DNA from: a virus
Taxonomy: Duplodnaviria > Heunggongvirae > Uroviricota > Caudoviricetes
Strand: one strand, 5' to 3'
IMG/VR virus record: IMGVR_UViG_2630968766_000008
Location: 1 to 38,909 of that record
Length of the DNA stretch: 38,909 bases
The position numbers were made by a program, and so were the translations under genes. Of this stretch, positions 1 to 16,363 are shown one piece after another. The first letter of the stretch is position 1. Every line of letters starts with the position of its first letter. A model generated the notes under the pieces. It searched no databases, was not told where the DNA came from, and saw only the letters and a program-made list of their open reading frames with translations.

Positions 1-1119
1 TCAAATAACCAACTTAACCCATTCCTGACCTCGAGTATCGTTATAGCGATCGGTGGTTGCCTGGACTTTATGTCCTAGTAATGTTTTTGTATCGATACCC
101 TGTGCACGGTACAGCCGTTCTGATAGAGAGCGTTGTTCATGAAATGTTGGCGGAGTTTTTCCTGCTGGTGGAATTATCCCAGCCAGATCCCGTGCTTTGG
201 CAAAGTAGTCGCTCAGGTTGTCTTTACTCATCGGCTTCGGTTGTTTCTGGTGCCGACTATGGATTAGATATGGACTTAATATTCTGTCTCGGCACCCATC
301 AATAACTTCTTTTAACGTTATCCCAATGGCATCACAGCGTAGTGTAAGCGGTAACGCCAGACGCATTCCGGTTTTTCCCTGGGTGATATGCAAGTGTTCG
401 TTCCACACATCTGAAAAACGCATGTGGCAAATGTCATCACGGCGCTGACCAGTAACAATCGCAAGAAGCATTGCGTTACGGATAAAGTGTTTTTCAGGCG
501 TTGCATTGTAAATTTTTTGCCAGTCTTCCATGGTGAGCCTGGCTCTGGTTACTTTAGGGATCGGTTTACGGGTAGCCTCCGGAGGATTCCATCCAGGAGG
601 AACTTCCCCTGCATGCTGTGCTTCTTTATAAATATCAACCCATAATCCACGATTTACTCTCGCTGTGCTGACCATGTCTTTATCCAGCCACTCATCCAGT
701 ATTAATGCAAAGTCTCTTACTTCCAGTTCTTTCAATGGGTGGTTTCCCAGACGGGAAACCAGGTATGCAGCCATTCGGGTTTTTTCTTTGTGAGTTGTAG
801 CTGCAATATCTCCATTTTTCAGTCGCGTGTCCTGTATTTTCAGATATCGATCAACCCATGCCTTTAATCTGATACCCCGACGTTTTGTTGCTGACGGACT
901 TTCATCAATTTTGCGCATGAAATATTCAGCTTCTGCTGCAGCTATTCGCTGATTGGCTGTGGAAGCTATTTTTTCTGCCTTACCTTTGTCTGTTCCGAGT
1001 CCGTGAAATTTTCCAGTCACAGGATTTTTATACTGGTAGTAAACTCTGCCAGTTCTGCGATCAAACTTTTCGTAAAGACCGGCTACGTCAGTGCTGTTTT
1101 TTCGTGGCCTCGGTGACAT
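1..1119 (-). CDS. int: Phage integrase, tyrosine recombinase (lambda Int family)
   Basis: 372-aa ORF whose stop codon is at positions 1-3; C-terminal region has the R...HxxR...Y catalytic layout typical of tyrosine recombinases (..HMRFSDV.., ..LLGHK.., ..TTDRYND..). Sits at the prophage edge next to an Xis-like gene. Confidence 0.9.
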   Translation of the reverse strand: MSPRPRKNSTDVAGLYEKFDRRTGRVYYQYKNPVTGKFHGLGTDKGKAEKIASTANQRIAAAEAEYFMRKIDESPSATKRRGIRLKAWVDRYLKIQDTRLKNGDIAATTHKEKTRMAAYLVSRLGNHPLKELEVRDFALILDEWLDKDMVSTARVNRGLWVDIYKEAQHAGEVPPGWNPPEATRKPIPKVTRARLTMEDWQKIYNATPEKHFIRNAMLLAIVTGQRRDDICHMRFSDVWNEHLHITQGKTGMRLALPLTLRCDAIGITLKEVIDGCRDRILSPYLIHSRHQKQPKPMSKDNLSDYFAKARDLAGIIPPAGKTPPTFHEQRSLSERLYRAQGIDTKTLLGHKVQATTDRYNDTRGQEWVKLVI

Positions 1120-1366
1120 GAGTTAAAATCTCCTTCAGTGCATCATCATCGCCAGTATGAATTTCCGGCGCAATTCCCGTTTCACCAGGCCCAACAAATA
1201 CTGCTCGGCGATCTATCAGCCAACGCCCACGAATTTTTTGTGGCCTTGGAACGATGTATCCTAGTTTTCCGTATTTCACCAGGGTAGTGTTTGTTATTGG
1301 GAGACTGAACCGTTTTGGTTTCCACTCGTCGAGCGTTATCAGGTACTGTTCGCTCATGGCTATCAC
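1088..1366 (-). CDS. xis: Excisionase (Xis-like DNA-binding protein)
   Basis: 92-aa ORF immediately upstream of and overlapping int by 32 nt; small basic protein with YLITLDEW...GRWLIDRRAV motif resembling phage excisionase/AlpA-type HTH. Start could be the second Met (1357). Confidence 0.7.
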   Translation of the reverse strand: MIAMSEQYLITLDEWKPKRFSLPITNTTLVKYGKLGYIVPRPQKIRGRWLIDRRAVFVGPGETGIAPEIHTGDDDALKEILTHVTEATKKQH

Positions 1367-1418
1367 TCCGGAACGCGCCAGTTGCAGAATATCAACGACA
1401 ACTGGCGACGGTTGAACA

Positions 1419-3860: not shown

Positions 3861-3953
3861 TATTGGTAAACCTCATCACAGATTTAAGGGTGAACAAATC
3901 TCTGCCATTGCTGACATATAAGAATGAAACTGGATATTTATTACGGTGCTGTT

Positions 3954-4145
3954 TTAAAATCCTGCCGGGATTTCGTTATTATCCTGGTGAATAACTTTAT
4001 CGACCGGATAACAGTTGCCTGGAATTTTCTGTTCGGTTGCTGCTGCCATACATTCCTGCATTGTTCTGTGAACACTGACTGCAATATCAACTGGCTCTCC
4101 GGAAACAAGAAAAACCGTCAGAATAAGTGCAAATACTGGATTCAT
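3954..4145 (-). CDS. ydfD: YdfD-like small lysis protein (63 aa) with N-terminal hydrophobic helix
   Basis: 63-aa ORF (MNPVFALILTVFLVSG...) whose ATG overlaps the dicB stop as ATGA, the same arrangement as dicB-ydfD in the E. coli Qin prophage; size matches YdfD from memory. Confidence 0.6.
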   Translation of the reverse strand: MNPVFALILTVFLVSGEPVDIAVSVHRTMQECMAAATEQKIPGNCYPVDKVIHQDNNEIPAGF

Positions 4146-4330
4146 TGTGCACATCCTTTTGGCATCAGACGTAAACGGGCCAGCATTGAAACAATGCATA
4201 CTTTATTTAATAACTCCCGTTCGTGTTTTCTTTTGTTAATGGCATCTTCAGTAAATACAGGATTACTGATAGTGACACCAATTTCAAAACAACCTTCAGA
4301 CGTATTAACGTTTGGTAATAACGTTTTCAT
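4142..4330 (-). CDS. dicB: Cell division inhibitor DicB (MinC-activating)
   Basis: 62-aa ORF MKTLLPNVNTSEGCFEIGVTISNPVFTEDAINKRKHERELLNKVCIVSMLARLRLMPKGCAQ, nearly identical to my recollection of E. coli K-12 DicB; GAGGG Shine-Dalgarno 8 nt upstream; immediately downstream of the dicF sRNA. Confidence 0.8.
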   Translation of the reverse strand: MKTLLPNVNTSEGCFEIGVTISNPVFTEDAINKRKHERELLNKVCIVSMLARLRLMPKGCAQ

Positions 4331-4499
4331 TATCGCGCCCTCAACAATGAGTTTTGTGATGCGGTGCCTGGTGCCTCCAGGTGACGTTAACCAGTTAACA
4401 ATTAACGCCGGATACAGAGAATCCACCCATAACACTGTTTTTGGTTTTAACTGTTCCGCGTGCGCTTAGCCGCATTCACCGCATCACAAAATTCACTTT

Positions 4500-4557
4500 A
4501 AAAAGGGCGGCAGAGCAGTCACGGAGTAAAACTGATACCGCCAAACGTCACCAGAAA
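4500..4557 (-). ncRNA. dicF: DicF small RNA (ftsZ translational inhibitor) including its intrinsic terminator
   Basis: Reverse complement of 4500-4557 reads TTTCTGGTGACGTTTGGCGGTATCAGTTTTACTCCGTGACTGCTCTGCCGCCCTTTTT, which matches the DicF sequence as I recall it, ending in a GC-rich hairpin (GGCGG...CCGCC) plus U-run. Lies between ydfC and dicB as in Qin. Confidence 0.75.
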
Positions 4558-4898
4558 ATTGATAACAGAGGGCGTTGCAGCGGGGTTGTCACTTAAGCGT
4601 ATGGTCAACCTGACAACCCGGTGTCCTCAACGGGGGAAGGAATAACCCCGCCATACTTACCGCCGCGCCATTTCGCGGATTGCCACAACCGGAAGCGCAC
4701 GGTCGACGAAAATTTAACGACAGGCTATCTATGAACCAGCTACCTCGCCGTGCGCTTTCGCGTTATGGTCTGACTTTTCAGGGAAATATCCTTTCAGTAA
4801 ACTGTCAGTGCCGGATGCTCACCCGTGTCCGGCGCACGCACTCCACCTCACCCGTGGAGAACTCCTTAATTACCAACCTTAGCTTCGTTGGTTAGCTA

Positions 4899-5117
4899 TT
4901 AACGCGGGTATGTAATCATTCTGGCAATGCTTAATGCCGCTGCTTTTTCCAGCCTGGTGATATCCTGCTCCAGAGCGGACAGATTTTCAGCCTGCTTAGC
5001 CCTGGCTTCATTGGCCCATTTCAGATCCTGCGCTGCATTAATTTTCTGGCGCATCCACTCATAAAGTTCATCATCGGTATAGTCTGGCGCGATGATGACG
5101 GGTTCTCGTTTCTGCAT
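4899..5117 (-). CDS. ydfC: YdfC-like hypothetical protein (72 aa) of the dicB operon
   Basis: 72-aa ORF with strong AGGAG Shine-Dalgarno 5-6 nt upstream of ATG; size and position (upstream of dicF) match Qin ydfC. Confidence 0.55.
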   Translation of the reverse strand: MQKREPVIIAPDYTDDELYEWMRQKINAAQDLKWANEARAKQAENLSALEQDITRLEKAAALSIARMITYPR

Positions 5118-5188
5118 GTCGGCTCCTTGTGGTTAGCGTTGCCTGCTTTTAACCACGTCAGGCGAGGTGGTATCCTCTGAGGGGTCTG

Positions 5189-5545
5189 TTACTCGAGAGG
5201 AAATTGGTTATGAATACAATCAAGTTTTCTTGCCCAGAATGTGGTGGCGAAGTCTTTGACACATCCTTTAAACCGCAGGGCTCTGACAGTTTCGCGGGAG
5301 CCATCTGCAAAAATTGTGGTCACCTTGTAACTGAAGATGAGTCCTCGCAGTTCGATGACGAAATCGTTGACAATATCTTCGGTGCACTCACCAGAGACTT
5401 TCTGAAATAAAGACGCATACCGCTTAGTTACCGCTCTGATAACTCTTACCTGTCCGGCAATGGCGCTGATGTCAATATAAAGCGCCATTGCTGCTTCTTT
5501 GCCGATCCCGTGATGCCTTCCATTCTGATGTTTGACTTCGCCCAC
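5189..5545 (-). CDS. Hypothetical first gene of the leftward dicB operon (position of Qin ydfA/ydfB); start uncertain (GTG 5545 or ATG 5488)
   Basis: Open frame directly downstream of the leftward promoter; AGAGGA 7 nt before GTG. An antisense zinc-ribbon ORF on + (5210-5410) competes with it, so only one of the two is likely real. Confidence 0.3.
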   Translation of the reverse strand: MGEVKHQNGRHHGIGKEAAMALYIDISAIAGQVRVIRAVTKRYASLFQKVSGECTEDIVNDFVIELRGLIFSYKVTTIFADGSRETVRALRFKGCVKDFATTFWARKLDCIHNQFPLE

Positions 5546-5625
5546 TGAGAAATCCTCTGTTTCCCCTTAACGCCGGGTAGCGGAACTGTTTGCTGAGAAC
5601 ACCGTGCGGTGTCTTGATGGGTGGT

Positions 5626-5654
5626 AATTTAGTTTTCTCATGAATGTTGGTCAA
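5626..5654 (-). promoter_or_regulatory. Leftward early promoter (pL / dicB-operon promoter analogue) with operator repeat in the spacer
   Basis: On minus strand: TTGACC (5654-5649) - 17 nt - TAAATT (5631-5626); spacer contains TGAGAAAACT operator-like motif; a second copy TGAGAAAACTCA at 5665-5676. Confidence 0.5.
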
Positions 5655-5738
5655 GTATTTTTAATGAGAAAACTCAATATTTAATGCAAAATAAAGCCAA
5701 TACATTGAAATGTAAGGCTTTAAAATTTGTGAAGGGGG

Positions 5739-6146
5739 TTACTGATGTTTGTTACGTTTGCGAGCTTCTAGTAGCTCGGTGAATAGGCGATTAAAATTCT
5801 CAACGCGGGCACGGAGTTCGCTGATTTGTGCTTGCTGCTCTGATTTTGGAAGTGCGCGATACAATCGCAACATCTCCAACTCATCTTCCGATAAGTCTAA
5901 GGCGCTGTTGAGTGCAACTGGTGGATCTGGTGTTTTATCCTCGTCACCAAACAGTATCCAAGTTGGTGAACATTGCAATACCTCAGCCAGGCGATGCAAA
6001 TTTTGCCCGCGCGGGGCTGTATGGTCGCTTTCCCATAGTGAAATTGATGAGCCAGATACGCCAGCGGCTTTGCTTAAATCGTTTTGACTTAAACCAACCT
6101 GTTTGCGTCTTTCTCTAATTCGTTGACCTAAAGTTTTCTCGTTCAT
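5739..6146 (-). CDS. dicA: DicA-like repressor (XRE-family HTH, C2/cI analogue)
   Basis: 135-aa ORF; N-terminal HTH (QRIRERRKQVGLSQNDLSKAAGVSGSSISLWE) and conserved VLQCSPTWILFGDEDK segment as in E. coli DicA; divergent from Cro-like dicC. Confidence 0.85.
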   Translation of the reverse strand: MNEKTLGQRIRERRKQVGLSQNDLSKAAGVSGSSISLWESDHTAPRGQNLHRLAEVLQCSPTWILFGDEDKTPDPPVALNSALDLSEDELEMLRLYRALPKSEQQAQISELRARVENFNRLFTELLEARKRNKHQ

Positions 6147-6167
6147 ATTTAGATATCTTAATAACCC

Positions 6168-6209
6168 TTGACTTGAGATTCCTTGAGTGATTACTATTGA
6201 GAAAACTCA
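6168..6209 (+). promoter_or_regulatory. Rightward early promoter (pR analogue) with operator TGAGAAAACTCA
   Basis: TTGACT (6168-6173) - 17 nt - TTACTA/TACTAT, followed by palindromic-ended operator TGAGAAAACTCA at 6198-6209, the same 12-mer found twice left of dicA. Confidence 0.45.
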
Positions 6210-6223
6210 ACTTTGGAGGGGTG

Positions 6224-6451
6224 ATGTTTAAATCAGACGTAATTAATTTTTATGGGACGAAAGCCAAAGTAGCGAAAGCTGCTGGTGTTGATCCATCTGC
6301 TGTTTCTCAATGGGGGGAACTGGTTCCTGAAGGTCGCGCGATGCGCCTGCAAGAGGCATCCGGCGGGGAACTTCAGTACGACCCCAAAGTTTATGACGAA
6401 TATCGTAAGGCAAAGCGGGCGGGGCGGTTGAACAATGAAAATCACCCCTGA
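6224..6451 (+). CDS. dicC: DicC-like Cro-type regulator
   Basis: 75-aa ORF from ATG 6224 (GGAGG Shine-Dalgarno 5 nt upstream); sequence ...VPEGRAMRLQEASGGELQYDPKVYDEYRKAKRAGRL... resembles E. coli DicC; divergent to dicA. Confidence 0.75.
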   Translation: MFKSDVINFYGTKAKVAKAAGVDPSAVSQWGELVPEGRAMRLQEASGGELQYDPKVYDEYRKAKRAGRLNNENHP

Positions 6452-6986
6452 ACAGGTTTGTGAGGCTCTGGATGCCTGGGTATGTCGACCAGGAATGACA
6501 CAGGAGCAGGCGACGATATTAATCACGGAAGCATTCTGGGCTCTGAAAGAACGCCCGAACATCGATGTTCAACGCGTCACGTTTAATGATGGCGAGGTTG
6601 ATCAACGGGCGCTGGGCGTTAACCGGGTGAAGATATTCGAACGCTGGAAAGCTATCGACACCAGGGATAAGCGGGAAAAATTCACGGCGCTGATTCCGGC
6701 AATTATGGAGGCTATCCGGATCAGCGATTTCAGGTTGTATTGTGAAATTACTGACGGAAAAAGCATTACGTACATGATCGCCGGGTTAAACAAAGAATAT
6801 GGCGATGTGGTGGAGTCCGGGCTGCTTTTTGCGGATCCATCTGTTGTGGAACGTGAGACTGACGAGCTTATAGAAAAAGCTATTGCTTTCAAGCATGCGT
6901 ATCGTCAGCAATATCAATATTACTTTGCAGATAAACAAATGTCTGCCAGGGGTTCGTATGAGTATCGATGCACTACGATGGGCTAA
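6435..6986 (+). CDS. Hypothetical protein, possibly YdaT-family (occupies the cII position)
   Basis: 183-aa ORF directly after the Cro-like gene, overlapping it by 17 nt; assignment to the YdaT family is from positional analogy and vague motif memory only. Confidence 0.4.
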   Translation: MKITPEQVCEALDAWVCRPGMTQEQATILITEAFWALKERPNIDVQRVTFNDGEVDQRALGVNRVKIFERWKAIDTRDKREKFTALIPAIMEAIRISDFRLYCEITDGKSITYMIAGLNKEYGDVVESGLLFADPSVVERETDELIEKAIAFKHAYRQQYQYYFADKQMSARGSYEYRCTTMG

Positions 6987-7998
6987 AAAGGTGAAAACCG
7001 GCAGTTCATCCAGTAAGTCTGTATTGACCTGGCTTGCTGATATGTGCGGTGCCGATTTGTGTGCATACCCGTCTGTATCTGCACTGGCAGAAGTAACGGA
7101 ACTGAACAAAAAGACTGTGCAGGACAGCTTACGACACCTGATGGAGATTGGGTTAATTGTTGATACCGGTGAGAGAAAAGGCAGAACAAAGCAAATTGTG
7201 GTGTACCGACTTATCGGTGTAGAAGAAAGTGTTGCCGAGCCTGAATACACCCAAAAACGGGAGTCTTTAAAGGTGGGTAAAATTGGTGCTGTTAATAAAA
7301 ACAGTACCGAAAATGGTTATGTTTCAGCACAAAACAGACCCAAAAACGGAACTCTTAGCTGCATGGAAAATAACCAAAGACACCCAAATTTTCCATCAAA
7401 GACACCCAAAAACGGATCACGGAACCCAAAGGAACCCAAAGATCTAAACCCCACACATAACGCACGCGAGAGTGCTCCGACCAGTGAGCAGGAAGTTTTA
7501 TCGTTACAGGCAGCACCCCTTGTATTCCTGGATGGCCTGAGCGAACCCATCGGAAAATTTCCGATGACCGATAGCTGGTATCCGTCACGGGATTTTCGAC
7601 GACGGGCTGCGTTGTGGGGGATGGCTTTGCCGGAGACAGAATTTACACCTGCTGAACTTGCCGCCTTCCGGGACTACTGGGCAGCGGAGGGGAAAGTGTT
7701 TACGCAGATTCAGTGGGAGCAGAAATTCGCCCGTCACGTAAATCACGTCAGGGCGCAGGTTAAACCAGTCAGCAAGGGGGGGAGCCATGCAGCAGCACCA
7801 GGTGGCACCGCATCACGGGCAGTTCAGGAAATTCGGGCAGCACGTGAGCAGTGGGAACGTGAAAACGGATTTATCAGCGACGGAAACGGCGTGGAAGCTG
7901 TGGGAACTCATGGGGGATGTTTATTCGAACCGCTGGACCCAGAAGAACGGGGTCGCACCTTCGAAGCTCTGGATTGCACAGATTGGCGCGATGACTGA
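6958..7998 (+). CDS. Replication initiation protein (O-like N-terminal wHTH, DnaT-like C-terminal domain)
   Basis: ORF 6883-7998; likely start ATG 6958 (MSIDALRWAKKV...). N-terminus looks like a helix-turn-helix replication protein; C-terminal TDSWYPS...FTPAELAAFRDYW segment resembles the DnaT/primosomal domain fused to phage replication proteins. Confidence 0.6.
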   Translation: MSIDALRWAKKVKTGSSSSKSVLTWLADMCGADLCAYPSVSALAEVTELNKKTVQDSLRHLMEIGLIVDTGERKGRTKQIVVYRLIGVEESVAEPEYTQKRESLKVGKIGAVNKNSTENGYVSAQNRPKNGTLSCMENNQRHPNFPSKTPKNGSRNPKEPKDLNPTHNARESAPTSEQEVLSLQAAPLVFLDGLSEPIGKFPMTDSWYPSRDFRRRAALWGMALPETEFTPAELAAFRDYWAAEGKVFTQIQWEQKFARHVNHVRAQVKPVSKGGSHAAAPGGTASRAVQEIRAAREQWERENGFISDGNGVEAVGTHGGCLFEPLDPEERGRTFEALDCTDWRDD

Positions 7999-8452
7999 GC
8001 AGCAAATCCGACAGGTCTGCCGCCAGTGCATGGACCGCTGCCGGGCGGGTGAAACATGGCCTCCTGACCTGGCTGAGTTTGTGGCGTTGATTTCAGAAAG
8101 TGGAGCCAATCCATTCGGTCTGACGGTAGATGCCGTGATGGAAGAGTACCGCCGCTGGCGCAACGAGTCCTGGCGATACGACGGGAGCGATAAATACCCG
8201 TGGTCTCAGCCTGTGCTGTATCACATTTGCCTCGAGATGCGTTCAAAGGGGATTGAGCGCCAGATGACCGAAGGGGAATTAAAACGGCTTGCAGAACGGC
8301 AGCTGACGAAATGGGCAAAGCATGTTAGTAACGGCCTGAGCGTTCCGCCAGTCCGGCGACAACTGGAGGCACCCAAACGCCCGTCGGGGCCAACGCCAAT
8401 TGAGTTGCTGAAACAGGAATATGAACGCCGGAAAGCGGCTGGGTTTGTTTGA
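7787..8452 (+). CDS. Replication protein P-like (DnaB helicase loader); start uncertain (7787, 7910 or 7991)
   Basis: Segments WPPDLAEFVALI, YPWSQPVLYHICLEMRS, MTEGELKRLAERQL align by eye with lambda P (PSPGQFVAWC..., YPWKSNAHYWLV..., LTDAELRRKAADEL). ATG 7991 overlaps upstream stop as ATGACTGA. Confidence 0.55.
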   Translation: MQQHQVAPHHGQFRKFGQHVSSGNVKTDLSATETAWKLWELMGDVYSNRWTQKNGVAPSKLWIAQIGAMTEQQIRQVCRQCMDRCRAGETWPPDLAEFVALISESGANPFGLTVDAVMEEYRRWRNESWRYDGSDKYPWSQPVLYHICLEMRSKGIERQMTEGELKRLAERQLTKWAKHVSNGLSVPPVRRQLEAPKRPSGPTPIELLKQEYERRKAAGFV

Positions 8453-8484
8453 GTTGAGAAGTAATTTTTACCGGGAGGAAATTT

Positions 8485-9255
8485 ATGGAGACTGTTTTTG
8501 ACGCACTGAAAGCGATGGGAAAAGCCACGTCGGTAGAGCTGGCTGCGCGACTTGATATCAGTCGTGAAGAAGTGCTGAACGAACTATGGGAACTGAAAAA
8601 GGCTGGCTTCGTTGATAAAAGCGTATACACCTGGCGTGTGGCTGGCGAAGGTGAATCCGGGGTAGCCGAAGAGCAGCCAGCACAATCTGAAGTACAGGAT
8701 GTGCTAACCAGGGAGGTCGAACGAAAAGTTACCGCTGACATGATGATTGAGTTTATCGGTCAGGAGGGTGCTAAAACGTGTGAGGAACTGGCGGGTAAGT
8801 TCGGTGTCAGCACTCGCAAGGTTGCTTCCACGCTGGCGGTAGTAACCGCAACGGGGCGGCTGGCACGCGTAAACCAGAACGGTAAATTTCGCTACTGCAT
8901 GCCGGGCGAGAATTTACCAGCTGAGCCGAAAGCTGCACCGGTAACGAAAACGGCTGGTAAGGCATTTCCTCAGCCCGCAGGTGTTGCGTTACCAGTACAG
9001 GAGGCTGCAACACAGGAAGATATTAAAACAGAAACTGTGGCGGACATTGTGCAGTCGCTGCCATCGTTCACCGAAACGCGAGCGGATGACCTGATTTTAC
9101 CATCGCTGCATATGGCAAACCGCGAACTGCGTCGAGCGAAAAGTCATGTCCAGAAGTGGGAGCGTGTCTGCGCCGCGCTGCGTGAGCTGAACAGGCACCG
9201 GGATATTGTCCGACAGATTGTCGATTCTTCCCGCCGTGTTGTATCGGAAAAGTGA
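8485..9255 (+). CDS. Hypothetical protein with two winged-helix-like repeats
   Basis: 256-aa ORF with Shine-Dalgarno GGAGG; two repeats of a [16 protein letters not shown].../[16 protein letters not shown]... wHTH-like pattern. Confidence 0.5.
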
Positions 9256-9692
9256 TTGCCGGAGGCGCTTATGGCAAAAGTATTTACACAAGAAGAGCGG
9301 GAAAAATTAAAGGGCAGGTTGTTGAACTTGTACGCCAGAGTGGGCGCGAGACGTTACGACAACTGGAAGCTAAAACCGGGGCAACAAGATATCTGATGAG
9401 TGTTCTCGCAAGAGAGCTGGTTGCCAGTGGCGATGTATACAACTCTGGCTACGGGTTATTCCCGTCTGAACAGGCGCGTAAGGACTGGCAAAACGCCCGC
9501 AAAAAACTCTCGAGGGCAAAGCTGAAGAAAACATCTGTGGTTGATCCGGACCTTATCTGGTCGTTACCAGACGGAGAAATTCGCCGCTATGACAGGCGTC
9601 TGAACATAATCTGTCGCGAGTGCCGAAAGAGCGAAGCTATGCAGCGTGTACTGGCTTTCTATCAGGGTAATTTTCAGGAGGCGGTACTGTGA
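9252..9692 (+). CDS. Hypothetical wHTH-like protein (146 aa, GTG start overlapping upstream stop as GTGA); start uncertain
   Basis: N-terminal [32 protein letters not shown] repeats the wHTH pattern of the preceding gene, which supports this frame over a 41-aa alternative-frame ORF at 9271-9396. Confidence 0.45.
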
Positions 9693-9749
9693 GTGAAATT
9701 AGCTATCAGGCTTCAATTGCCGCTGGCATTCGCATCAAAGGAGAGGAGC

Positions 9750-10106
9750 ATGGAAATAAAACCAGAGGATGAGTTAAGCAATATCGTTTTATTTCCGATA
9801 AAAGAGGATGACCCTCGTAATCAGGTTAATTTTCTTTATGAGCCATCGGAAAGACCATATTGCCATCATGCTTCTGTCCGGGTTGACGAAAAAGAGCGTC
9901 AGGTCCGCTGTAAAATCTGCGGTGCAGTTGTGGAGCCATTTGACTGGATGCTCTCTGTGGCGAAAAGAGAAACCAGACTGGCAGATGATGTAAAACTATT
10001 GCGCCAGGAGGAACAGGAAAGGCGAAAAAATATAGAAAAGCTAATTCAGATTGAGCGTAATGCGAAAGCACGGATACGCAGGGTGACAAAATCCAGAACT
10101 GAATAA
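9750..10106 (+). CDS. Hypothetical zinc-ribbon protein with basic coiled C-terminus
   Basis: 118-aa from ATG 9750 with AAAGGAGAGGAG Shine-Dalgarno; CHH...CKICG cysteine/histidine cluster; K/R/E-rich C-terminal helix. Confidence 0.45.
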   Translation: MEIKPEDELSNIVLFPIKEDDPRNQVNFLYEPSERPYCHHASVRVDEKERQVRCKICGAVVEPFDWMLSVAKRETRLADDVKLLRQEEQERRKNIEKLIQIERNAKARIRRVTKSRTE

Positions 10107-10199
10107 TTAAATTTAGCACTGTTAAAAATTTAATCCTTAACCGGAGGGATTTCTGCACCCTCAGAACAGCAGGAGGCCACCCGAAAGGGTGGTAGTGAA

Positions 10200-10382
10200 A
10201 TGCGAAAGTTCAAAATAATTATTGAAACGGGAATAGCTGGTGGAGATTTTGAGGATGTATTCGAAGTGGACGATGACGCAACACCTGATGAAATTCATGA
10301 CGAAGCAAAAGAAATTTTCTTTAACTACTGCAATTACTCATATCACGAAATAAAAGACGAAGAGGAAGAACAAAATGGCTGA
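10200..10382 (+). CDS. Small highly acidic protein (60 aa)
   Basis: ORF rich in D/E (FEDVFEVDDDATPDEIHDEAKE...KDEEEEQNG); preceded by AGGAGG and a hairpin; stop overlaps next start. Confidence 0.35.
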   Translation: MRKFKIIIETGIAGGDFEDVFEVDDDATPDEIHDEAKEIFFNYCNYSYHEIKDEEEEQNG

Positions 10383-10551
10383 TTTTGGTTCAACTAAATA
10401 CAACGTCAGTTTTGAAGAATGGCATGAACTGTTAATGGACTATGCAGAGTTACGTGGTGGAAGTGCTGTTGATGCTGAAGCCTGGCGTGATGACTACGAA
10501 GCAGGAAAAACTCCGGTCGAAGCATATTGTGATGAGTGGGGCGATGATTGA
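10375..10551 (+). CDS. Small acidic protein (58 aa), translationally coupled to the previous ORF
   Basis: ATG overlaps upstream stop (ATGGCTGA); translation MADFGSTKYNVSFEEWHELLMDYAELRGGSAVDAEAWRDDYEAGKTPVEAYCDEWGDD; below the 60-aa cutoff of the supplied ORF track. Confidence 0.3.
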   Translation: MADFGSTKYNVSFEEWHELLMDYAELRGGSAVDAEAWRDDYEAGKTPVEAYCDEWGDD

Positions 10552-10736
10552 TTATGACCACAATTACCAGAGAACGACTGCTGGAAATGTTTGCGTGAAA
10601 AGGAGAGTTAAGTAAAATCGCCGCGGGTGCTTGAGGCTATCTGCCTCGGGCATGAACACCAACGGCAGATAGAGAAAAGCCCCAGTTAACATTACGCGTC
10701 CGGCAAGACGCTTAACATTAATCTGAGGCTCAATCT

Positions 10737-10949
10737 ATGAACGGCAAATCTAGGTTAGCCTCTTACGTGCCGAAAGGCAAGGAGAAGCAGGCTATGAAGC
10801 AGCAAAAGGCGATGTTAGTCGCCCTGATCGTCATCTGTATTACCGTCATTGTGACGGCACTGGTAACGAGGAAAGACCTCTGCGAGGTACGAATCCGAAC
10901 CGGCCAGACGGAGGTCGCTGTCTTCACAGCTTACGAACCTGAGGAGTAA
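10737..10949 (+). CDS. mok: Mok-like regulatory reading frame (in-frame N-terminal extension of hok)
   Basis: 70-aa ORF sharing stop with hok, as for mokC/hokC in E. coli K-12 (69/50 aa). Confidence 0.5.
   Translation: MNGKSRLASYVPKGKEKQAMKQQKAMLVALIVICITVIVTALVTRKDLCEVRIRTGQTEVAVFTAYEPEE
10794..10949 (+). CDS. hok: Hok/Gef family type I toxin (membrane-depolarising peptide)
   Basis: 51-aa MKQQKAMLVALIVICITVIVTALVTRKDLCEVRIRTGQTEVAVFTAYEPEE, very close to HokC/Gef; AAGGAGAAG Shine-Dalgarno; followed by strong intrinsic terminator. Confidence 0.85.
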   Translation: MKQQKAMLVALIVICITVIVTALVTRKDLCEVRIRTGQTEVAVFTAYEPEE

Positions 10950-11015
10950 GAGACCAGGCGAGGGAGAAATCCCTCGCCACCTCTGATGTGTCAGGCATCC
11001 TCAAAGCACCCGCAC

Positions 11016-11046
11016 TTAACCCGCTTCGGCGGGTTTTTGTTTTTAT
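11016..11046 (+). terminator. Rho-independent terminator after hok
   Basis: AACCCGCTTCGGCGGGTTTTTGTTTTT hairpin plus T-run. Confidence 0.65.
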
Positions 11047-11166
11047 TTTCAACGCGTTTGAAGTTTTAGATGGTGCCGGAATAGAATCAAAAATACTTAA
11101 GTAGCGCGCAGGGAGAAGAGGGATGGACCCCGAACAGGGGAGTGCTATTTATCTGGAAGGATTCTG

Positions 11167-11430
11167 TTGATGAAAATCGAAGAATTACGTGAAATTTTTA
11201 GTGAAGATGGCCTCTATACTGTGCGCGTTGAGAATGGCGCTATTGTCAGCCACTGCCGTATTAAATGTTTACAGTCTCAACAAAGGAAGAGTGGAGCTGC
11301 GTTAATTCATTTGGTGGATGGGCTTGTGACGGATGGTTTTATTTTGCGTGCAAATGAATTTGTCACATCGTTGCCGTCTCTGAAAGAAGCTGGGATTAAG
11401 GCTGGTTTTTCTGCTTTTGAAGATGAGTGA
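11167..11430 (+). CDS. Hypothetical small protein (Rem-like by position between hok and DUF968 gene)
   Basis: 87-aa ORF; synteny with Qin (hokD-rem-ydfU-quuQ) suggests a Rem counterpart, but sequence identity not verifiable from memory. Confidence 0.4.
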   Translation: MMKIEELREIFSEDGLYTVRVENGAIVSHCRIKCLQSQQRKSGAALIHLVDGLVTDGFILRANEFVTSLPSLKEAGIKAGFSAFEDE

Positions 11431-11496
11431 ATTCATCTACAATTCAGCGCAGGGCTGAACCCCTGTTGAGTAACACTGTGCCACCGGAGAAAGCCG

Positions 11497-11775
11497 ATGG
11501 CGCAAAATTCCAGACTACACAATTCTGATAATTCAGCCGTCTTTGCCAGCGGGCACGGGCGGCGTTCTCATGCATTCAAATCTGACTGGTTCCAGCACGA
11601 CCCATGCACTGAAGAACAGGCCGAATGGCTGATTCAGAACTACCGCAGGCGTGGGTACGAGTTTCAGAAAGACCTCAGTCTTGACTTCCGACATTGGATA
11701 ATCTCAGTCAGATTGCCTTACTCCGAACGCCAACCGCGTCCGTCCCGTACATTCCAGCAACGCATCTGGAGGTAA
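11497..11775 (+). CDS. Hypothetical protein (92 aa)
   Basis: GGAGAAAG Shine-Dalgarno 4 nt upstream of ATG; stop immediately precedes the DUF968 gene start. Confidence 0.45.
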   Translation: MAQNSRLHNSDNSAVFASGHGRRSHAFKSDWFQHDPCTEEQAEWLIQNYRRRGYEFQKDLSLDFRHWIISVRLPYSERQPRPSRTFQQRIWR

Positions 11776-11776
11776 C

Positions 11777-12832
11777 GTGCGGGTATTACTTCGACCTGTT
11801 CCGGTACCGGAACTCGGGCTGGTGGTCCTTAGGCCGGGCCGTGAATCCATGCAAGTATTTCATAACCCTCGAGTGCTGGTGGAGCCTGAACCGAAAAGCA
11901 TGCGCGGTCTGCCGTCCGGAGTCGTCCCTGCCGTTCGCCAGCCGCTGGCGGAGGATAAATCATTACTGCCATTTTTCAGCGATGAGCGGGTGATTCGTGC
12001 TGCTGGCGGCGCTGGGGCACTGTCTGACTGGCTGTTGCGTCATGTCAAATCCTGCCAGTGGCCTCATGGTGACTATCATCACAGTGAAATCGTCATACAT
12101 CGTTACGGTACCGGCGCGATGGTGTTGTGCTGGCACTGCGACAACCAGTTGCGTGACCAGACATCCGAATCACTCGGGCAACTTGCTCATCAAAACCTGT
12201 CAGCATGGATGATTGACGTCATACGCCATGCAATGAATGGCACGCAGGAGCGGGAATTGTCGCTGGCTGAATTATCCTGGTGGGCGGTCTGCAATCAGGT
12301 GGCGGACGCGCTTCCGGAGGCAGTATTACGTCGTTCTCTGGGGTTACGTGCGGAAAAAATCCGCTCCTTGTACCGCGAAAGCGACATCGTACCGGGAGAG
12401 CAGACCGCCACCAGCATACTGAAGCAGCGCACAAAAAATCTTGCGCCGTTGCCTCATGCCCACCAGCAAAACCCGCCACAGGAAAAGACGGTGGTCAGCA
12501 TTGCCGTTGATCCGGAGTCACCGGCTCAGTATCTCCAGCGCCAGAAACCACAACGGGAAGAGATGCCTGTATACACGCGTTGGGTAAAAACGCAGAAATG
12601 CATGACGTGCGGTAATCAGGCAGATGATCCGCATCACATCATTGGTCATGGACTGGGAGGGATGGGAACAAAGGCTGATGATTTGTTTGTTATTCCGCTG
12701 TGCCGTAAATGTCATAACGAACTGCACGCCGGGGTAAAAGATTTTGAAGAAAAACACGGCAGCCAGCTGTTGTTGCTGATTCGTTTTTTAATGCACGCGA
12801 GAAATTCGGGTGTCCTGAAGTGGAAAGCATGA
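11777..12832 (+). CDS. DUF968-family protein (YdfU-like) with C-terminal HNH-like Cys/His motif
   Basis: 351-aa ORF, GTG start after GGAGG; C-terminus CGNQADDPHHIIGHGLGG...CRKCHNELHAG; position upstream of rusA and Q matches ydfU in Qin-like prophages. Confidence 0.7.
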   Translation: MRVLLRPVPVPELGLVVLRPGRESMQVFHNPRVLVEPEPKSMRGLPSGVVPAVRQPLAEDKSLLPFFSDERVIRAAGGAGALSDWLLRHVKSCQWPHGDYHHSEIVIHRYGTGAMVLCWHCDNQLRDQTSESLGQLAHQNLSAWMIDVIRHAMNGTQERELSLAELSWWAVCNQVADALPEAVLRRSLGLRAEKIRSLYRESDIVPGEQTATSILKQRTKNLAPLPHAHQQNPPQEKTVVSIAVDPESPAQYLQRQKPQREEMPVYTRWVKTQKCMTCGNQADDPHHIIGHGLGGMGTKADDLFVIPLCRKCHNELHAGVKDFEEKHGSQLLLLIRFLMHARNSGVLKWKA

Positions 12833-13210
12833 ATGACTGAACGCATAGAATTTGTTTTGCCTTACCCGCCGACGGTGAATACCTACTGGCGACGTCATGG
12901 CAATACGTATTTCATCTCGGAGGCCGGAAAGCGTTATCGCCATGATGTGGCGCTAATTGTTCGCCAGCAGCGGTTGAAATTAAACCTGTCCGGAAGGCTG
13001 GCGATAAAGATTATTGCAGAGCCACCGGATAAGCGCCGTCGTGACCTGGACAATATCCTGAAAGCACCACTGGATGCGCTGACGCATGCCGGACTACTCA
13101 TAGACGACGAGCAGTTTGATGAAATTAATATTGTGCGCGGTCAGGTCGTTCCTGGTGGTCGGTTGGGCGTGAAGATTTACGAAATTACAGGTGATAACGA
13201 TGGCGCGTGA
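12833..13210 (+). CDS. rusA: Holliday junction resolvase RusA
   Basis: 125-aa ORF; [13 protein letters not shown]...[28 protein letters not shown] matches RusA motifs (LPWPPSNNRYY...PDRRRRDLDNLQKAAFDAL). Confidence 0.85.
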
Positions 13211-13586
13211 TATTCAGCAGGTTATGGAGCGGTGGGGAGCATGGGCTGCAAACAATCACGAAGATGTGTCATGGGCGTCAATAGCTGCTGGTTTTAAAGG
13301 ATTAATCCCGCCGAAAGTGAAATCACGCCCTCAGTGTTCTGATGATGATGCAATGATAATTTGTGGCTGTATGGCCCGGTTGAACAAGAAAAATCAGGAT
13401 TTGCACGATTTGTTGGTGGATTATTACGTAGGTGGAATGACTTTTATGGGGCTGGCACGAAAGCATGGGTGTTCGGATACCTGTATTGGCAAGCGCCTGC
13501 AGAAAGCGGAAGGGGTTATTGATGGCATGTTGATGATGCTTGATATCCGACTGGAGATGGACAGATACGTAGAACGAATCATGTAG
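13200..13586 (+). CDS. Late gene antiterminator Q (phage 82/21 type)
   Basis: [35 protein letters not shown]...[20 protein letters not shown]...[10 protein letters not shown] closely resembles Q82/QuuD-family antiterminators. Confidence 0.85.
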
Positions 13587-13590
13587 GAGC

Positions 13591-13620
13591 TTGACCAGAC
13601 ACATTGTCCGGGGCTATATT
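13591..13620 (+). promoter_or_regulatory. Late promoter pR' analogue (Q-modified)
   Basis: TTGACC (13591-13596) - 17/18 nt - TATATT (13615-13620) directly downstream of Q. Confidence 0.5.
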
Positions 13621-13682
13621 CCTCACGCGCCAGCAAAATCTGGCGTCGGGATTAGGAACCCCGGATTGAGACCGCGACAGAT

Positions 13683-13706
13683 ACACGCCGCGAGCGTGTT
13701 TTTTAT
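13683..13706 (+). terminator. tR'-like intrinsic terminator of the short late leader RNA
   Basis: ACACGCCGCGAGCGTGT hairpin followed by TTTTTTATT, ~80 nt downstream of the putative pR'. Confidence 0.5.
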
Positions 13707-13867
13707 TGTCGTATGCACGCGCACATCTGAATTATGGTGGGGCGTATGGGGGAGCTGAAAGGCTCGCCGGTTGGTTTCCCGGTAGTTCCTAACCCTGTAC
13801 GTCTCACCACCCGATGATTAGGAACCTGACGGTGGTGATAGTTTAGAAACCACTAGAGGGCGTCATT

Positions 13868-14431
13868 ATGACAACTCAAATCTCTGTTGAAACTCTCTCC
13901 CCGATCACCCATAACCAGATTCCTGTAATTACCACTGAACTTTTGGCGCAGCTTTATGGCACCGAAATTCTGAATATCCAGGTTAACTTCACCAGAAACA
14001 AAGAGCGTTTTGTCGCAGGAAAGCACTTTTTTAAAGCAGCGGGTGAGGAATTAAAAAAATTGCGACTTACTTTAAGTAAGTCACAAAATCCCATCTCTCC
14101 CAAAACCCGCTCCCTCATTCTCTGGACAGAACGAGGCGCAGCCCGTCACGCCAAAATGCTCGAGACCGATCAGGCGTGGGATGTGTTCGAAAAACTGGAA
14201 GACTGTTATTTCAGCCAGAAACAGCCACCAGCAGCACAAAACTCCCCCACCGAAAATGATGGATGCGCATTACTGATCCACTTCGATAAACACGGTCAGG
14301 TCGACTTCACGGAAAAAGTACCCGCCGATGCGATGGTATGCACTCTGGAACGGTTTAAATTTTATCTGGAACAACGCGGCTGGATCGTTGCCCGTAAAGA
14401 GCAGCTGGTGGAACGACTGATGCGGCTTTAA
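13868..14431 (+). CDS. ORF6N/antirepressor-like domain protein
   Basis: 187-aa ORF; N-terminal ~100 aa (ITTELLAQLYGTEILNIQVNFTRNKERFVAGKHFF...ILWTERGAARHAKML) resembles the ORF6N/KilA-N-type DNA-binding domain of phage antirepressors. Confidence 0.5.
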   Translation: MTTQISVETLSPITHNQIPVITTELLAQLYGTEILNIQVNFTRNKERFVAGKHFFKAAGEELKKLRLTLSKSQNPISPKTRSLILWTERGAARHAKMLETDQAWDVFEKLEDCYFSQKQPPAAQNSPTENDGCALLIHFDKHGQVDFTEKVPADAMVCTLERFKFYLEQRGWIVARKEQLVERLMRL

Positions 14432-14506
14432 AAATTTTCCCCGAACGCTTTACGATCGTAAAAAGTTGAATATCCTGTTAAGAGTGGTTACTACGCCACA
14501 CAGCTT

Positions 14507-14532
14507 AAACCCGCCGATGAGCGGGTTTTTTG
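14507..14532 (+). terminator. Rho-independent terminator
   Basis: AAACCCGCCGATGAGCGGGTTTTTTG. Confidence 0.55.
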
Positions 14533-14654
14533 TGCCCGAAAAGCGGTACAGGATGTTAAATGCGCTGGTGGTTGCGAATACAGGTCTTTCAGCTTGCTGG
14601 CTTTTTCGACAAGAGTTATTGGTATGTCACGTTAACCAGAAAAGGGAAAAAGAC

Positions 14655-14852
14655 ATGCTAAAACAGCAGGATATGACCGAAACTGCCAGAGTGGTATTTA
14701 ATGAATTAAGTGTCACCGAACCAGCGACCGTCGGGGAAATTGCGCAGAATACTTACCTTTCACGTGAACGCTGCCAGTTAATACTGACCCAGCTTGTTAT
14801 GGCGGGTCTGGCAGATTATCAGTTCGGTTGTTACAGACGCCTTCCGCAGTGA
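14655..14852 (+). CDS. Small winged-helix DNA-binding protein (65 aa)
   Basis: ATG 14655 with AGGGA upstream; ...ELSVTEPATVGEIAQNTYLSRERCQLILTQLVMAGL... HTH-like pattern; directly upstream of the methyltransferase. Confidence 0.4.
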   Translation: MLKQQDMTETARVVFNELSVTEPATVGEIAQNTYLSRERCQLILTQLVMAGLADYQFGCYRRLPQ

Positions 14853-15002
14853 AGGCTTTTTAATTTGTGGTAATGGGCGGCTGGTGGGTGTTAGCGGCAC
14901 CTGCCAGCCATCTGCTCATGCGTTGGGGTCACAAGCAAACCTCAGGCCCATCTGCTTTGCGCAAAAGCGGTATGAGCCTATCAGAGAAGCGCTTATTGAT
15001 CT

Positions 15003-16055
15003 ATGGCTAATACTGTAAAAATATCCAGTTGTGAGTTAATCAACGCTGATTGCCTGGAATTTATCCAGACCTTACCGGAAAACTCTGTCGATCTGATAGT
15101 CACAGACCCGCCATACTTTAAAGTGAAGCCCGAGAGCTGGGATAACCAGTGGAAGGGGGACGATGATTACCTGAAATGGCTCGACCAGTGTCTGGCGCAG
15201 TTCTGGCGGGTACTGAAGCCCGCCGGAAGTCTTTACCTGTTCTGTGGTCATCGCCTGGCATCTGACACCGAAATTATGATGCGTGAACGCTTTAATGTGC
15301 TGAATCACATTATCTGGGCGAAGCCGTCAGGACGCTGGAACAGGTGCAACAAGGAAAGCCTGCGGGCGTATTTCCCGGCAACAGAGCGCATTCTGTTTGC
15401 CGAACATTATCAGGGGCCATACCAGCCCAAAAATGACGGCTATGCGGCAAAAGAAAGGGAACTCAAACAGCACATAATGGCACCGCTGATATCGTATTTC
15501 AGGGATGCTCGTGCCGAACTGGGTATAACGGCAAAACAAATTGCCGAAGCCACAGGTAAGAAAAATATGGTTTCCCACTGGTTTGGTGCCAGTCAGTGGC
15601 AGTTGCCGAATGAGGCTGACTATCGGAAGTTACAGGCACTGTTTTCCCGTATAGCGGCAGAGAAGTTTCAGGAACAACAACTGGAACAACCACACCACCA
15701 GCTGGTGGCATCTTATGATTCACTGAATCGCAAATATTCTGAATTGCTGGATAAGTTTAAATCTCTCCGGCGCTATTTCTCCGTATCAGTCTCCGTGCCT
15801 TATACCGATGTCTGGATGCATAAACCCGTTCAGTTCTACCCGGGTAAACATCCGTGTGAGAAACCGGCGGATATGCTCAGGCAAATAATCAATGCCAGTA
15901 GTCGACCTGGTGATCTGGTTGCTGATTTTTTTATGGGATCCGGTTCCACAATAAAAGCAGCAATGGCGCTGGGGCGTCGGGCCTTAGGTGTTGAGCTTGA
16001 GTCAGAGCGGTTTAACCAGACGGTGAAAGAGGTAAGTGAACTGGTGGGGGAATAA
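15003..16055 (+). CDS. DNA methyltransferase (N6-adenine/N4-cytosine, DPPY catalytic motif)
   Basis: 350-aa ORF; motif IV VTDPPYF near N-terminus and SAM-binding FFMGSGSTIKAA near C-terminus (beta-class arrangement). Confidence 0.85.
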   Translation: MANTVKISSCELINADCLEFIQTLPENSVDLIVTDPPYFKVKPESWDNQWKGDDDYLKWLDQCLAQFWRVLKPAGSLYLFCGHRLASDTEIMMRERFNVLNHIIWAKPSGRWNRCNKESLRAYFPATERILFAEHYQGPYQPKNDGYAAKERELKQHIMAPLISYFRDARAELGITAKQIAEATGKKNMVSHWFGASQWQLPNEADYRKLQALFSRIAAEKFQEQQLEQPHHQLVASYDSLNRKYSELLDKFKSLRRYFSVSVSVPYTDVWMHKPVQFYPGKHPCEKPADMLRQIINASSRPGDLVADFFMGSGSTIKAAMALGRRALGVELESERFNQTVKEVSELVGE

Positions 16056-16105
16056 TTCTGGTGTCAGAGCTTTTATTCGCTAATTTTTTCACTGGGAGGC
16101 TATTT

Positions 16106-16363
16106 ATGCATTCACACCATCATCAAATATCTATGATCCCACTTACCATGAGTTCACCCATTAAAGGTTTTTCACTGTATGTAGAAAGCGAAGACATGGC
16201 TGTCGCTATAGCTGAGCTTGAAAATGCCTTATCACAGCTCAAGAATGGAGATAAGGCATTCAAAGAAAGTGGCACGCTGGTTGGTAACGTCAGAGCAAGT
16301 TATTGCTATCCTTACCGTCCTCATTGTGCCGCGAAAGGTCTTTATTGGGATGAAGGGGATTAA
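16106..16363 (+). CDS. Hypothetical protein (85 aa)
   Basis: ATG 16106 preceded by GGGAGG (7-nt spacer); stop overlaps the stop of the convergent minus-strand gene (TTAA). Confidence 0.35.
   Translation: MHSHHHQISMIPLTMSSPIKGFSLYVESEDMAVAIAELENALSQLKNGDKAFKESGTLVGNVRASYCYPYRPHCAAKGLYWDEGD

Follow-up and report, generated by a model that had tools for sequence, protein, structure and literature searches.

From its sequence, we are highly confident that the window, a stretch of 38,909 nucleotides of viral DNA (IMG/VR record IMGVR_UViG_2630968766_000008), carries a complete and probably functional hok/mok/sok type I toxin-antitoxin cassette of the hokD/hokW type, extending from promoter to terminator. 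The cassette occupies positions of about 10590-11046 (Table 1) and is located in the early-right region, from the replication genes to nin, of a Qin/lambda-like E. coli prophage. The system is already known, being nearly identical to the published hokW-sokW locus, and its mechanism raises no new question. What is added here is a fine map of the cassette and the placement of its Sok gene by homology.

Table 1. Features of the hok/mok/sok cassette, in window coordinates
Feature	Position	Strand	Description
hok promoter, most likely placement	10590-10618	+	weak -35 TTTGCG (10590-10595) or TTGCGT (10591-10596); -10 TAAAAT (10613-10618)
Full-length hok mRNA	10625-11043	+	about 417-422 nt, from the most likely +1 G10625 to the terminator U-run
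tac (translational activator element)	10625-10636	+	GGGUGCUUGAGG; pairs with fbi in the full-length RNA and with ucb in the 3'-truncated RNA
Metastable 5' hairpin of the nascent transcript	10628-10652	+	10628-10637 with 10643-10652; the nascent fold adds 10627-10653
Predicted Sok RNA	10675-10745	-	about 71 nt; unpaired 5' tail, long hairpin, then GGGGCUUUU
ucb (upstream complementary box, anti-SD of mok)	10677-10683	+	AAGCCCC; pairs with the mok SD in the full-length RNA and with tac in the 3'-truncated RNA
mok Shine-Dalgarno (SD) element	10725-10730	+	GAGGCU; GAGG (10725-10728) 8 nt before the ATG
mok reading frame	10737-10949	+	70 aa; 19-aa N-terminal extension, in frame with hok
Sok promoter, placed by homology	10752-10780	-	-35 TTGCCT (10780-10775), 17-nt spacer, -10 TAACCT (10757-10752)
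dcb (downstream complementary box)	10757-10762	+	AGCCUC; pairs with the mok SD
hok Shine-Dalgarno element	10780-10784	+	AGGAG; 9 nt before the ATG, read from the sequence
hok toxin gene	10794-10949	+	51 aa, Pfam PF01848
Tyr47 codon and candidate TadA site	10932-10937	+	TAC then GAA, UACG motif; candidate A-to-I site A10933, Tyr to Cys
G+C-rich 3'-UTR hairpin	10957-10978	+	GGCGAGGGA-GAAA-UCCCUCGCC; present in MFE folds, between the stop codon and fbi
fbi (fold-back inhibitory element)	10999-11011	+	CCUCAAAGCACCC, with one bulged A; complementary to tac
Intrinsic terminator of the hok mRNA	11018-11046	+	found by terminator scan

Toxin gene, mok frame and terminator

A preliminary description of the window had recognized hok with an in-frame mok extension and a strong terminator at the end of the locus, and both hold. 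The list of open reading frames contains an ATG-initiated ORF of 70 aa at 10737-10949 on the plus strand, which is the mok frame. The hok ATG at 10794 is internal to this ORF and in the same frame, 57 nt or 19 codons downstream of its start, and opens the 51-aa Hok sequence (MKQQKAMLVALIVICITVIVTALVTRKDLCEVRIRTGQTEVAVFTAYEPEE). The whole Pfam model HOK_GEF (PF01848, positions 1-42 of 42) matched Hok with an E-value of 1.5e-23 and a score of 82.6 bits, for a cut-off of 22. The NCBIfam Hok models gave scores under their curated cut-offs (48.6 versus 73), and these matches were therefore left out of the evidence. Hok is identical to K-12-type HokD at 49 of 51 positions and to HokW at 45 of 51, and the RefSeq name for the protein identical to that of the window is HokD (WP_000813267.1). 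The conserved Cys30, in the LCE motif, and the TAC-GAA site of Tyr47 are both kept. At the 3' end of the locus, the terminator scan found a 7-bp stem with 5 G-C pairs (AACCCGCTTCGGCGGGTT, 11018-11035) followed by TTTGTTTTTA, which is the sole terminator-like site in 10300-11300. Together with the Pfam match and the Rfam match presented below, this terminator confirms the hok/mok locus beyond chance.

To compare the elements of the cassette between relatives, we used a MAFFT alignment of 33 loci from Escherichia, Shigella, Kluyvera, Citrobacter, Pseudocitrobacter, Photorhabdus, Pantoea and Erwinia. The copies of Photorhabdus, Pantoea and Erwinia were missed by the Hok regular expression, and their frames were taken from tblastn instead. 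The mok Shine-Dalgarno element GAGGCU is invariant in this alignment. An upstream ATG in frame with hok is the rule in Escherichia and in the Photorhabdus relatives; mok is out of frame with hok in the R1-type plasmid locus (L145) and in a Rac-like phage locus. Since the two frames coincide in the window, Mok contains the whole Hok sequence. As judged from the sequence, mok is present, with its own Shine-Dalgarno element and a 70-aa ORF ending at the hok stop codon, and its translational coupling to hok is putative.

Codon 47 and the codon that follows it read TAC-GAA in 31/33 loci and TAT or GAG in none, while TGC, a hard-coded Cys, stands at codon 47 in 2/33. The UACG editing motif of TadA has been described as a feature of the hok family (bioRxiv 10.1101/2025.08.07.668861). 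By extension from the family, the hok copy of the window may also undergo A-to-I editing.

Start and promoter of the hok mRNA

The hok mRNA had been expected to span 10560-11046. Its 3' end stands, while its 5' end is most likely G10625 and not 10560, because a conserved -10 box precedes a GGG at this place: TAAAAT ends 7 nt before G10625. This box aligns as TAnnAT in 32/33 loci, the exception being GAAAAT in a Citrobacter locus, with A2 and T6 invariant, and in the 33 loci it is found 6 nt upstream of an invariant GGG. The Rfam model RF01794 begins to match at the same nucleotide (10625-10799, plus strand, 107.1 bits for a gathering score of 59, E=1.5e-23, model positions 1-157 of 157). In addition, the homology arm of primer YO-351 (GCGGGTGCTTGAGG..., Takada 2021) is an exact match to 10623-10672. 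Positions 10560-10624 would thus be outside the mRNA and would comprise the hok promoter and a spacer behind the upstream ORF, whose stop codon is at 10551. A generic sigma-70 scan called neither the hok nor the Sok promoter and returned only an unrelated site at 11058-11087. Both promoters were therefore assigned by homology and conservation, and position and conservation together make the hok promoter of Table 1 the most likely one.

Folding switch of the hok mRNA

The 422-nt RNA 10625-11046 has a predicted folding energy of -173.2 kcal/mol (z=-7.0 relative to 100 shuffled sequences), with pairing between its 5' end and the 3' UTR. Folding the whole 5' flank against the whole 3' flank as a duplex was too unspecific, so we used motif-anchored extraction of the elements. 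The tac/fbi fold-back elements, which had been proposed by analogy with known hok loci, were recovered: a 12-bp helix between tac and fbi closes the MFE fold of the 422-nt RNA. When the register allows 0 or 1 bulge, all 12 pairs form in 29/33 loci. Compensatory changes are seen at position 4, where U:A becomes C:G, and at positions 11 and 12, where A:U replaces G:C; G:U pairs occur as intermediates, and 18 distinct tac/fbi combinations occur among the 33 loci. The uncorrected alignment count, in which 91.9% of cells are paired compared to 31-55% in slid controls, is too low because the loci that lack the bulged A sit one column off.

Before the 3' end is made, the first 31-52 nt of the nascent transcript fold into a metastable 5' hairpin with a predicted energy of -18.8 to -19.0 kcal/mol. 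Across the 33 loci, 96.4% of the cells of this hairpin are paired, against 29-53% in slid controls. Position 10628 undergoes U:A to C:G changes in the metastable hairpin as well as in tac/fbi. Such coupled covariation is what would be expected from the metastable nascent structure of R1 hok (PMC9841398).

Two further states were obtained by folding. In the closed state, given by the full-length RNA, the mok SD is paired with ucb, and 10761-10766 sequester the hok SD. In the open state, given by RNAs cut at or before 10998, tac moves onto ucb and the mok SD onto dcb. Removal of the 3' end alone reproduces this conformational switch in the folding. Both predicted states agree exactly with those published for R1 hok (PMC9841398). 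The pairing of the mok SD with dcb forms only in the 3'-truncated fold, where it makes the Sok-target hairpin 10725-10762, and all five G-C/A-U pairs of this stem are found in 33/33 loci. The tac/ucb helix is 99.6% paired over the 33 loci and invariant, and it therefore brings no covariation information.

Downstream of the hok stop codon, an equivalent GGCGGGGA...TCCCCGCC hairpin is present in 33/33 loci, with occasional compensatory changes such as GGTGGGG/CCCCACC. In the window this 3'-UTR hairpin is a plausible stop for 3' exonucleolytic trimming. The apical loop predicted for the Sok target (10741-10748, ACGGCAAA) shows no YUNR (U-turn) motif by inspection; a CUAG at 10750-10753 is paired in the MFE fold. 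In hokW (CUGA) and in locus L002 (CUCA), a YUNR motif is found near the mok ATG. A U-turn in the Sok-target loop is an accessory and not a defining feature of these systems.

The Sok antisense RNA

The minus-strand Sok gene was located by homology with sokW, whose promoter is validated by mutation. Its predicted promoter, TTGCCT-17-TAACCT, is identical to that of sokW. In the preliminary description, no convincing Sok promoter could be assigned by eye. That reading and the generic scan missed it because it is weak, with 4/6 matches to the sigma-70 consensus in the -35 hexamer and 3/6 in the -10 hexamer. Among the 33 loci, the -35 hexamer reads TTGCCT (TTGCTT in one) or TTGACC in all 33, with a 17-nt spacing in all, and the -10 hexamer reads TAnnnT in 28/33; this conservation is confounded because the same bases serve dcb, the hok SD hairpin and mok codons. 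The mutational support comes from a promoter-less sokW in which primer YO-421 turns TAACCT into GAGCCG and whose antitoxin activity is lost (Takada 2021, PMC8621323).

The predicted transcription start, G10745, is the 7th nucleotide after the -10 hexamer, and the predicted end is the U-run 10678-10675, both ends being uncertain by a few nucleotides. The resulting length of 71 nt equals the length reported for sokW. The predicted RNA folds with an energy of -31.4 kcal/mol (z=-4.9) and leaves about 10 nt unpaired at its 5' end. It would span both the mok SD (10725-10728) and the mok start codon (10737). An antisense RNA running from the minus strand across the mok initiation region had been anticipated at about 10730-10800; strand and target agree with this expectation, while the predicted body, 10745-10675, is mostly upstream of that interval, which consequently covers the Sok 5' tail and the promoter and not the body of the RNA.

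The name of RF01794, "sok antitoxin", and its match to the plus strand could be taken to mean that 10625-10799 is itself the Sok gene and that a minus-strand RNA is unneeded. We consider this reading scarcely credible. The model matches the hok-sense strand in 4/4 loci tested, including an R1-type plasmid locus and hokW. The helices of its consensus correspond to the tac/ucb and SDmok/dcb stems, and in the window its match stops at the hok start codon. An RNA from the sense strand cannot pair with the mRNA. Moreover, a fragment corresponding to positions 10643-10797 of the window gave back part of the protection by sokW, and this antitoxin activity needs the minus-strand -10 (Takada 2021, PMC8621323). 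RF01794, though named "sok", thus models the leader of the hok mRNA and not the antisense RNA, and its match was rejected as a plus-strand Sok gene. The Sok gene is best placed on the minus strand, as predicted above.

Comparison with known hok loci

The closest characterized relative is hokW-sokW of Sakai prophage 5 and of 933W-type Stx2 phages. The leader 10625-10735 is identical at 111 of 111 positions, and the -35, spacer and -10 of the Sok promoter are the same in sequence and position. Over the entire cassette, identity is about 92.6%, and both loci have mok in frame. Primers and probes of Takada 2021, or their locus-specific parts (YO-349, the YO-351 arm, YO-541 and YO-597), match the window exactly, and an Stx2-phage locus (L063) matches all Takada 2021 primers. 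The two systems differ at 8 of 15 bases in the block 10736-10750, which holds the Sok 5' tail and the mok start, and at the Hok C-terminus (TAYEPEE in the window versus VDYESEK in HokW). In the window a canonical terminator directly follows fbi, whereas the hokW copy of Stx2 phages diverges there. They also differ in phage position, the window copy lying between the replication genes and the nin/Q region and that of Stx2 phage I near the ea/int end.

In hokD (relF) of the K-12 Qin prophage, the closely similar Hok is encoded in a Qin-like context with DicF, dicB, ydfC and ydfD, common to both. In the K-12-type hokD loci (L012 and L013), homology to the window starts only at 10780, the hok SD, and relE sequence lies upstream; tac, ucb, the mok start, the Sok body and the Sok -10 are absent. 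What is a relic in K-12 is thus preserved in the window in its intact, ancestral form. The chromosomal hokC/sokC (gef) locus has mok in frame, the same tac and fbi and the same mRNA plan, while it lacks an 18-nt insert in the Sok hairpin region and a 1-nt deletion in its Sok -10 leaves (C)ACTCT.

The hok/sok (parB) locus of plasmid R1/IncF follows the same plan, from tac, the metastable hairpin, ucb, the mok SD and dcb onward to the Sok promoter, the hok SD, the 3' hairpin, fbi and the terminator. Its representative of the IncFII R1 type (L145) has the Sok promoter TTGCCT-17-TATCCT at the same place and matches RF01794 with a similar score. The blastn alignment with the window is confined to 47 nt (10752-10798), at 87%. 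The R1/IncF Hok, of 52 aa, is much more diverged, the mok frame differs from that of hok, unlike in the window, and R1 hok/sok sits on a plasmid while the window copy is in a prophage. The switch mechanism of the R1 hok mRNA has been described (PMC9841398).

These comparisons bear on whether the cassette could be a silent relic like K-12 hokA-E, one that no longer kills or in which the Sok promoter or the mRNA switch is dead. We regard this as improbable. The chromosomal hok loci tested by Pedersen and Gerdes gave no post-segregational killing (summarised in bioRxiv 10.1101/2025.08.07.668861), the hok and Sok promoters are weak by consensus, and the K-12-type hokD copies of the same family are truncated. 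Against this, every element examined in the window is intact and pairs as expected, and the cassette contains no IS, frameshift or truncation; mutations inactivating the leader, which the preliminary description had named as a possible objection, were not found in any leader element examined. The functional hokW-sokW has an identical leader and the same two Sok hexamers (PMC8621323), and 42 of 45 tested Hok homologues were toxic, HokD included (bioRxiv 10.1101/2025.08.07.668861). A complete and probably functional cassette accounts better for this state of preservation.

Prophage context and distribution

A 501-nt query covering the cassette has a 100% identical counterpart in the chromosome of E. 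coli SC516; the sole RefSeq annotation there is a "hokD" CDS. Positions 1-13167 of the window are 97.3% identical to a lambdoid prophage of SC516 with the order int, xis, exo, ydfD, dicB, DicF, ydfC, repressor/cro, replication genes, DUF7167, hokD, DUF968 and RusA. The window as a whole is not this prophage: the correspondence is limited to 1-13167, 17809-18282 (95.1%) and 18726-25438 (98.7%), and the window has another Q/lysis module and lacks the four tRNAs of SC516.

Related cassettes were found in 4718 of 5426 complete E. coli genomes; the median number of places per genome is 2 and the maximum 9. Matches were also obtained in 101 deposited phage records, in at least 594 IMG/VR stretches and in 1450 plasmid records. 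In other genomes, homology usually begins at 10585-10606 (positions 26-47 of the query) and ends at 11021-11060. These limits correspond to the extent of the promoter-to-terminator module.

A variable block in the Sok tail and mok start

The 15-nt block 10736-10750 takes in the target loop together with the Sok 5' tail and the initial codons of mok. When 66 close relatives are compared, the 10-nt stretch that varies most along the mRNA lies in this block, of which at least 11 alleles are seen. Mean pairwise divergence is 0.40 in the block, while the remainder of the leader gives 0.11 and the third codon positions of hok 0.077. Co-resident copies of the cassette were compared in two genomes, and in both they carry different alleles of the block. 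We tentatively suggest, as a possibility somewhat short of even, that the block is a diversifying specificity determinant: cassettes would represent recognition alleles whose copies are not neutralised by each other's Sok, and the window type would be distinct from sokW. Its variability may also reflect relaxed constraint on a loop or patchy recombination. Absence of cross-talk has already been published for R1 hok and the K-12 Sok RNAs. If the block does determine specificity, co-resident copies, or the copy of an incoming phage, would escape neutralisation by a foreign Sok RNA.

Proposed mechanism and roles

The elements of the following scheme are present in the sequence, and their action is transposed from R1 and hokW. 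The weak hok promoter would produce a stable mRNA of about 420 nt from G10625, and the 5' hairpin of the nascent RNA would hold tac. In the complete RNA, tac would be paired with fbi, ucb would hide the mok SD and the hok SD would be paired, so that the mRNA would be neither translated nor bound by Sok. Slow 3' trimming would take off the terminator and fbi, allowing tac to capture ucb and the mok SD to pair with dcb. In the opened mRNA, mok would be translated, and thereby the coupled or in-frame hok, and the Sok target would be exposed. The minus-strand promoter TTGCCT-17-TAACCT would meanwhile make Sok, an unstable RNA of about 71 nt (10745 to 10675) whose free 5' tail would pair with the target loop around the mok start. 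RNase III would destroy the duplex, with the help of Hfq in hokW. Once Sok is not replenished, Mok and Hok would be made and the 51-aa Hok would insert into the inner membrane. In Sp5 the trigger is RecA-dependent prophage induction; loss of the element or shut-off of transcription by an infecting phage could have the same effect. The UACG codon of Tyr47 may add a safeguard through TadA editing.

This scheme draws on hokW-sokW of Sakai prophage 5, a working type I toxin-antitoxin system with demonstrated toxicity and with antitoxin activity from its own promoter (PMC8621323). The antitoxin action of sokW depends on RNase III and Hfq (PMC8621323). After mitomycin C treatment, Sok is lost and HokW is produced in a RecA-dependent manner, accumulating in the inner membrane of cells carrying Sp5 (PMC8621323). 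The 3' processing of the hok mRNA, the cleavage of the duplex by RNase III and the toxicity of Hok are known from hokW-sokW and R1 (PMC8621323, PMC9841398).

The biological role of the cassette could be to help lysis when its own prophage is induced, or it could mainly serve as an addiction/stabilisation module or as an abortive-infection defence. We give the latter a substantial probability, a little below one half. Classically, hok/sok is credited with maintaining mobile elements and with defence against phages, and hok genes are about 4-fold enriched in prophages (bioRxiv 10.1101/2025.08.07.668861); the R1 system is a plasmid stabiliser. Yet hok is not enriched beside defence systems (bioRxiv 10.1101/2025.08.07.668861), and the sole direct test, made with a near-identical prophage copy, points to lysis: with hokW-sokW present, lysis occurred about 40 min earlier after induction, and release was two-fold higher, the phage yield being halved when the locus was absent (PMC8621323). 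The sequence does not discriminate between the two roles, which are not mutually exclusive.

The value of the map is mainly one of annotation, since RefSeq has the hokD CDS only, without mok, Sok or the mRNA. Because the Rfam "sok" model marks the sense-strand leader, an automated pipeline would put the antitoxin on the wrong strand. The map, with its promoters, tac, ucb, dcb, fbi, Sok ends and editing codon, is transferable to thousands of prophage copies in E. coli. The locus of the window also offers a picture of K-12 hokD before relBE displaced its leader, and a natural allele for asking whether Sok recognition tails confer copy-specific immunity.

Strand of the Rfam sok model

The Rfam family named "sok antitoxin (CssrC)", RF01794, matched the hok-sense strand in all the loci tested, namely the window, the Stx2-phage hokW-sokW locus L063, the related locus L064 and the IncFII R1-type plasmid locus L145. 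The model's consensus helices are two stems of the hok leader, tac/ucb and mok-SD/dcb. A pipeline labelling an RF01794 match as the Sok RNA would put the antitoxin on the wrong strand. A separate Rfam match in L063, to sRNA-Xcc1 (RF02221; 597-685, +; 69 bits), lies near the attachment site of Stx2 converting phage I and has no relation to hok.

On identical sequence in the SC516 prophage (NZ_CP025048.1 4650928-4651428; L001 12001-12501), the sole RefSeq annotation is a hokD CDS, with no mok, Sok RNA or regulatory features over that interval. For hok in the plasmid locus L145, the annotated start is an internal one at 582 instead of the ATG at 543.

Near-identical E. coli-type hok cassettes were observed in assemblies (L004, L010, L038, L050, L055 and L062) whose labels read Veillonella parvula MAG, Xanthomonas pisi, Acinetobacter idrijaensis, Candidatus Scatousia, Haemophilus MAG and Collinsella, and also in an "Actinobacillus phage" (phage match H30). 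Most of these cassettes are located on short contigs, and contamination or mis-binning seems a likelier origin than true hosts.

Genomic neighbourhood

Features identified in the window and the compared hok loci
Feature	Locus	Position	Strand	Evidence or context
DicF sRNA, full-length	window	4505-4556	-	Rfam, 76.7 bits
RF01794 match	window	10625-10799	+	Rfam
Sigma-70-like site TTGAAG-18-TAGAAT	window	11058-11087	+	directly 3' of hok terminator
86-aa ORF	window	11170-11430	+	after sigma-70-like site
Q antiterminator, 131 aa	window	13191-13586		Pfam Phage_antitermQ
c4-a1b1	window	13614-13667	+	Rfam, downstream of Q
isrK	window	13627-13704	+	Rfam, downstream of Q
C4 antisense RNA	window	13730-13814	+	Rfam, downstream of Q
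ORF6N-domain protein	window	13868-14431		after c4-a1b1/isrK/C4 matches
RF01794 match	L063	3037-3211	hok-sense	Rfam
RF01794 match	L064	1518-1694	hok-sense	Rfam
RF01794 match	L145	374-545	hok-sense	Rfam

The window's prophage and that of SC516 are 97-99% identical on both flanks and differ in the Q-to-lysis module (window 13167-18726 versus L001 14608-17790). Following Q in the SC516 prophage are four tRNA genes, those for Ile, Lys, Thr and Gly; ARAGORN found none across the whole window. At the Q position, the segment 13191-14431 looks like a P1 immI/Gifsy-1 isrK-type antirepressor module under antisense control. The 86-aa ORF shares 62% identity with a protein of a Rac-like phage whose record calls it "Rem, prophage antirepressor" and shows the same hok-then-rem gene order as the window. 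The left arm is Qin-like, since DicF adjoins dicB/ydfD/ydfC homologues.

Sok 5' tails

In its 5' tail, Sok of the hokW type (GTGTTCAGCATG) is nearly identical to chromosomal sokC (GTGTTCAGCATA), as read from the Sok 5' regions of the related loci L006 and L031. Judging from this likeness, sokC could conceivably cross-talk with hokW-type loci, but not with the allele of the window.
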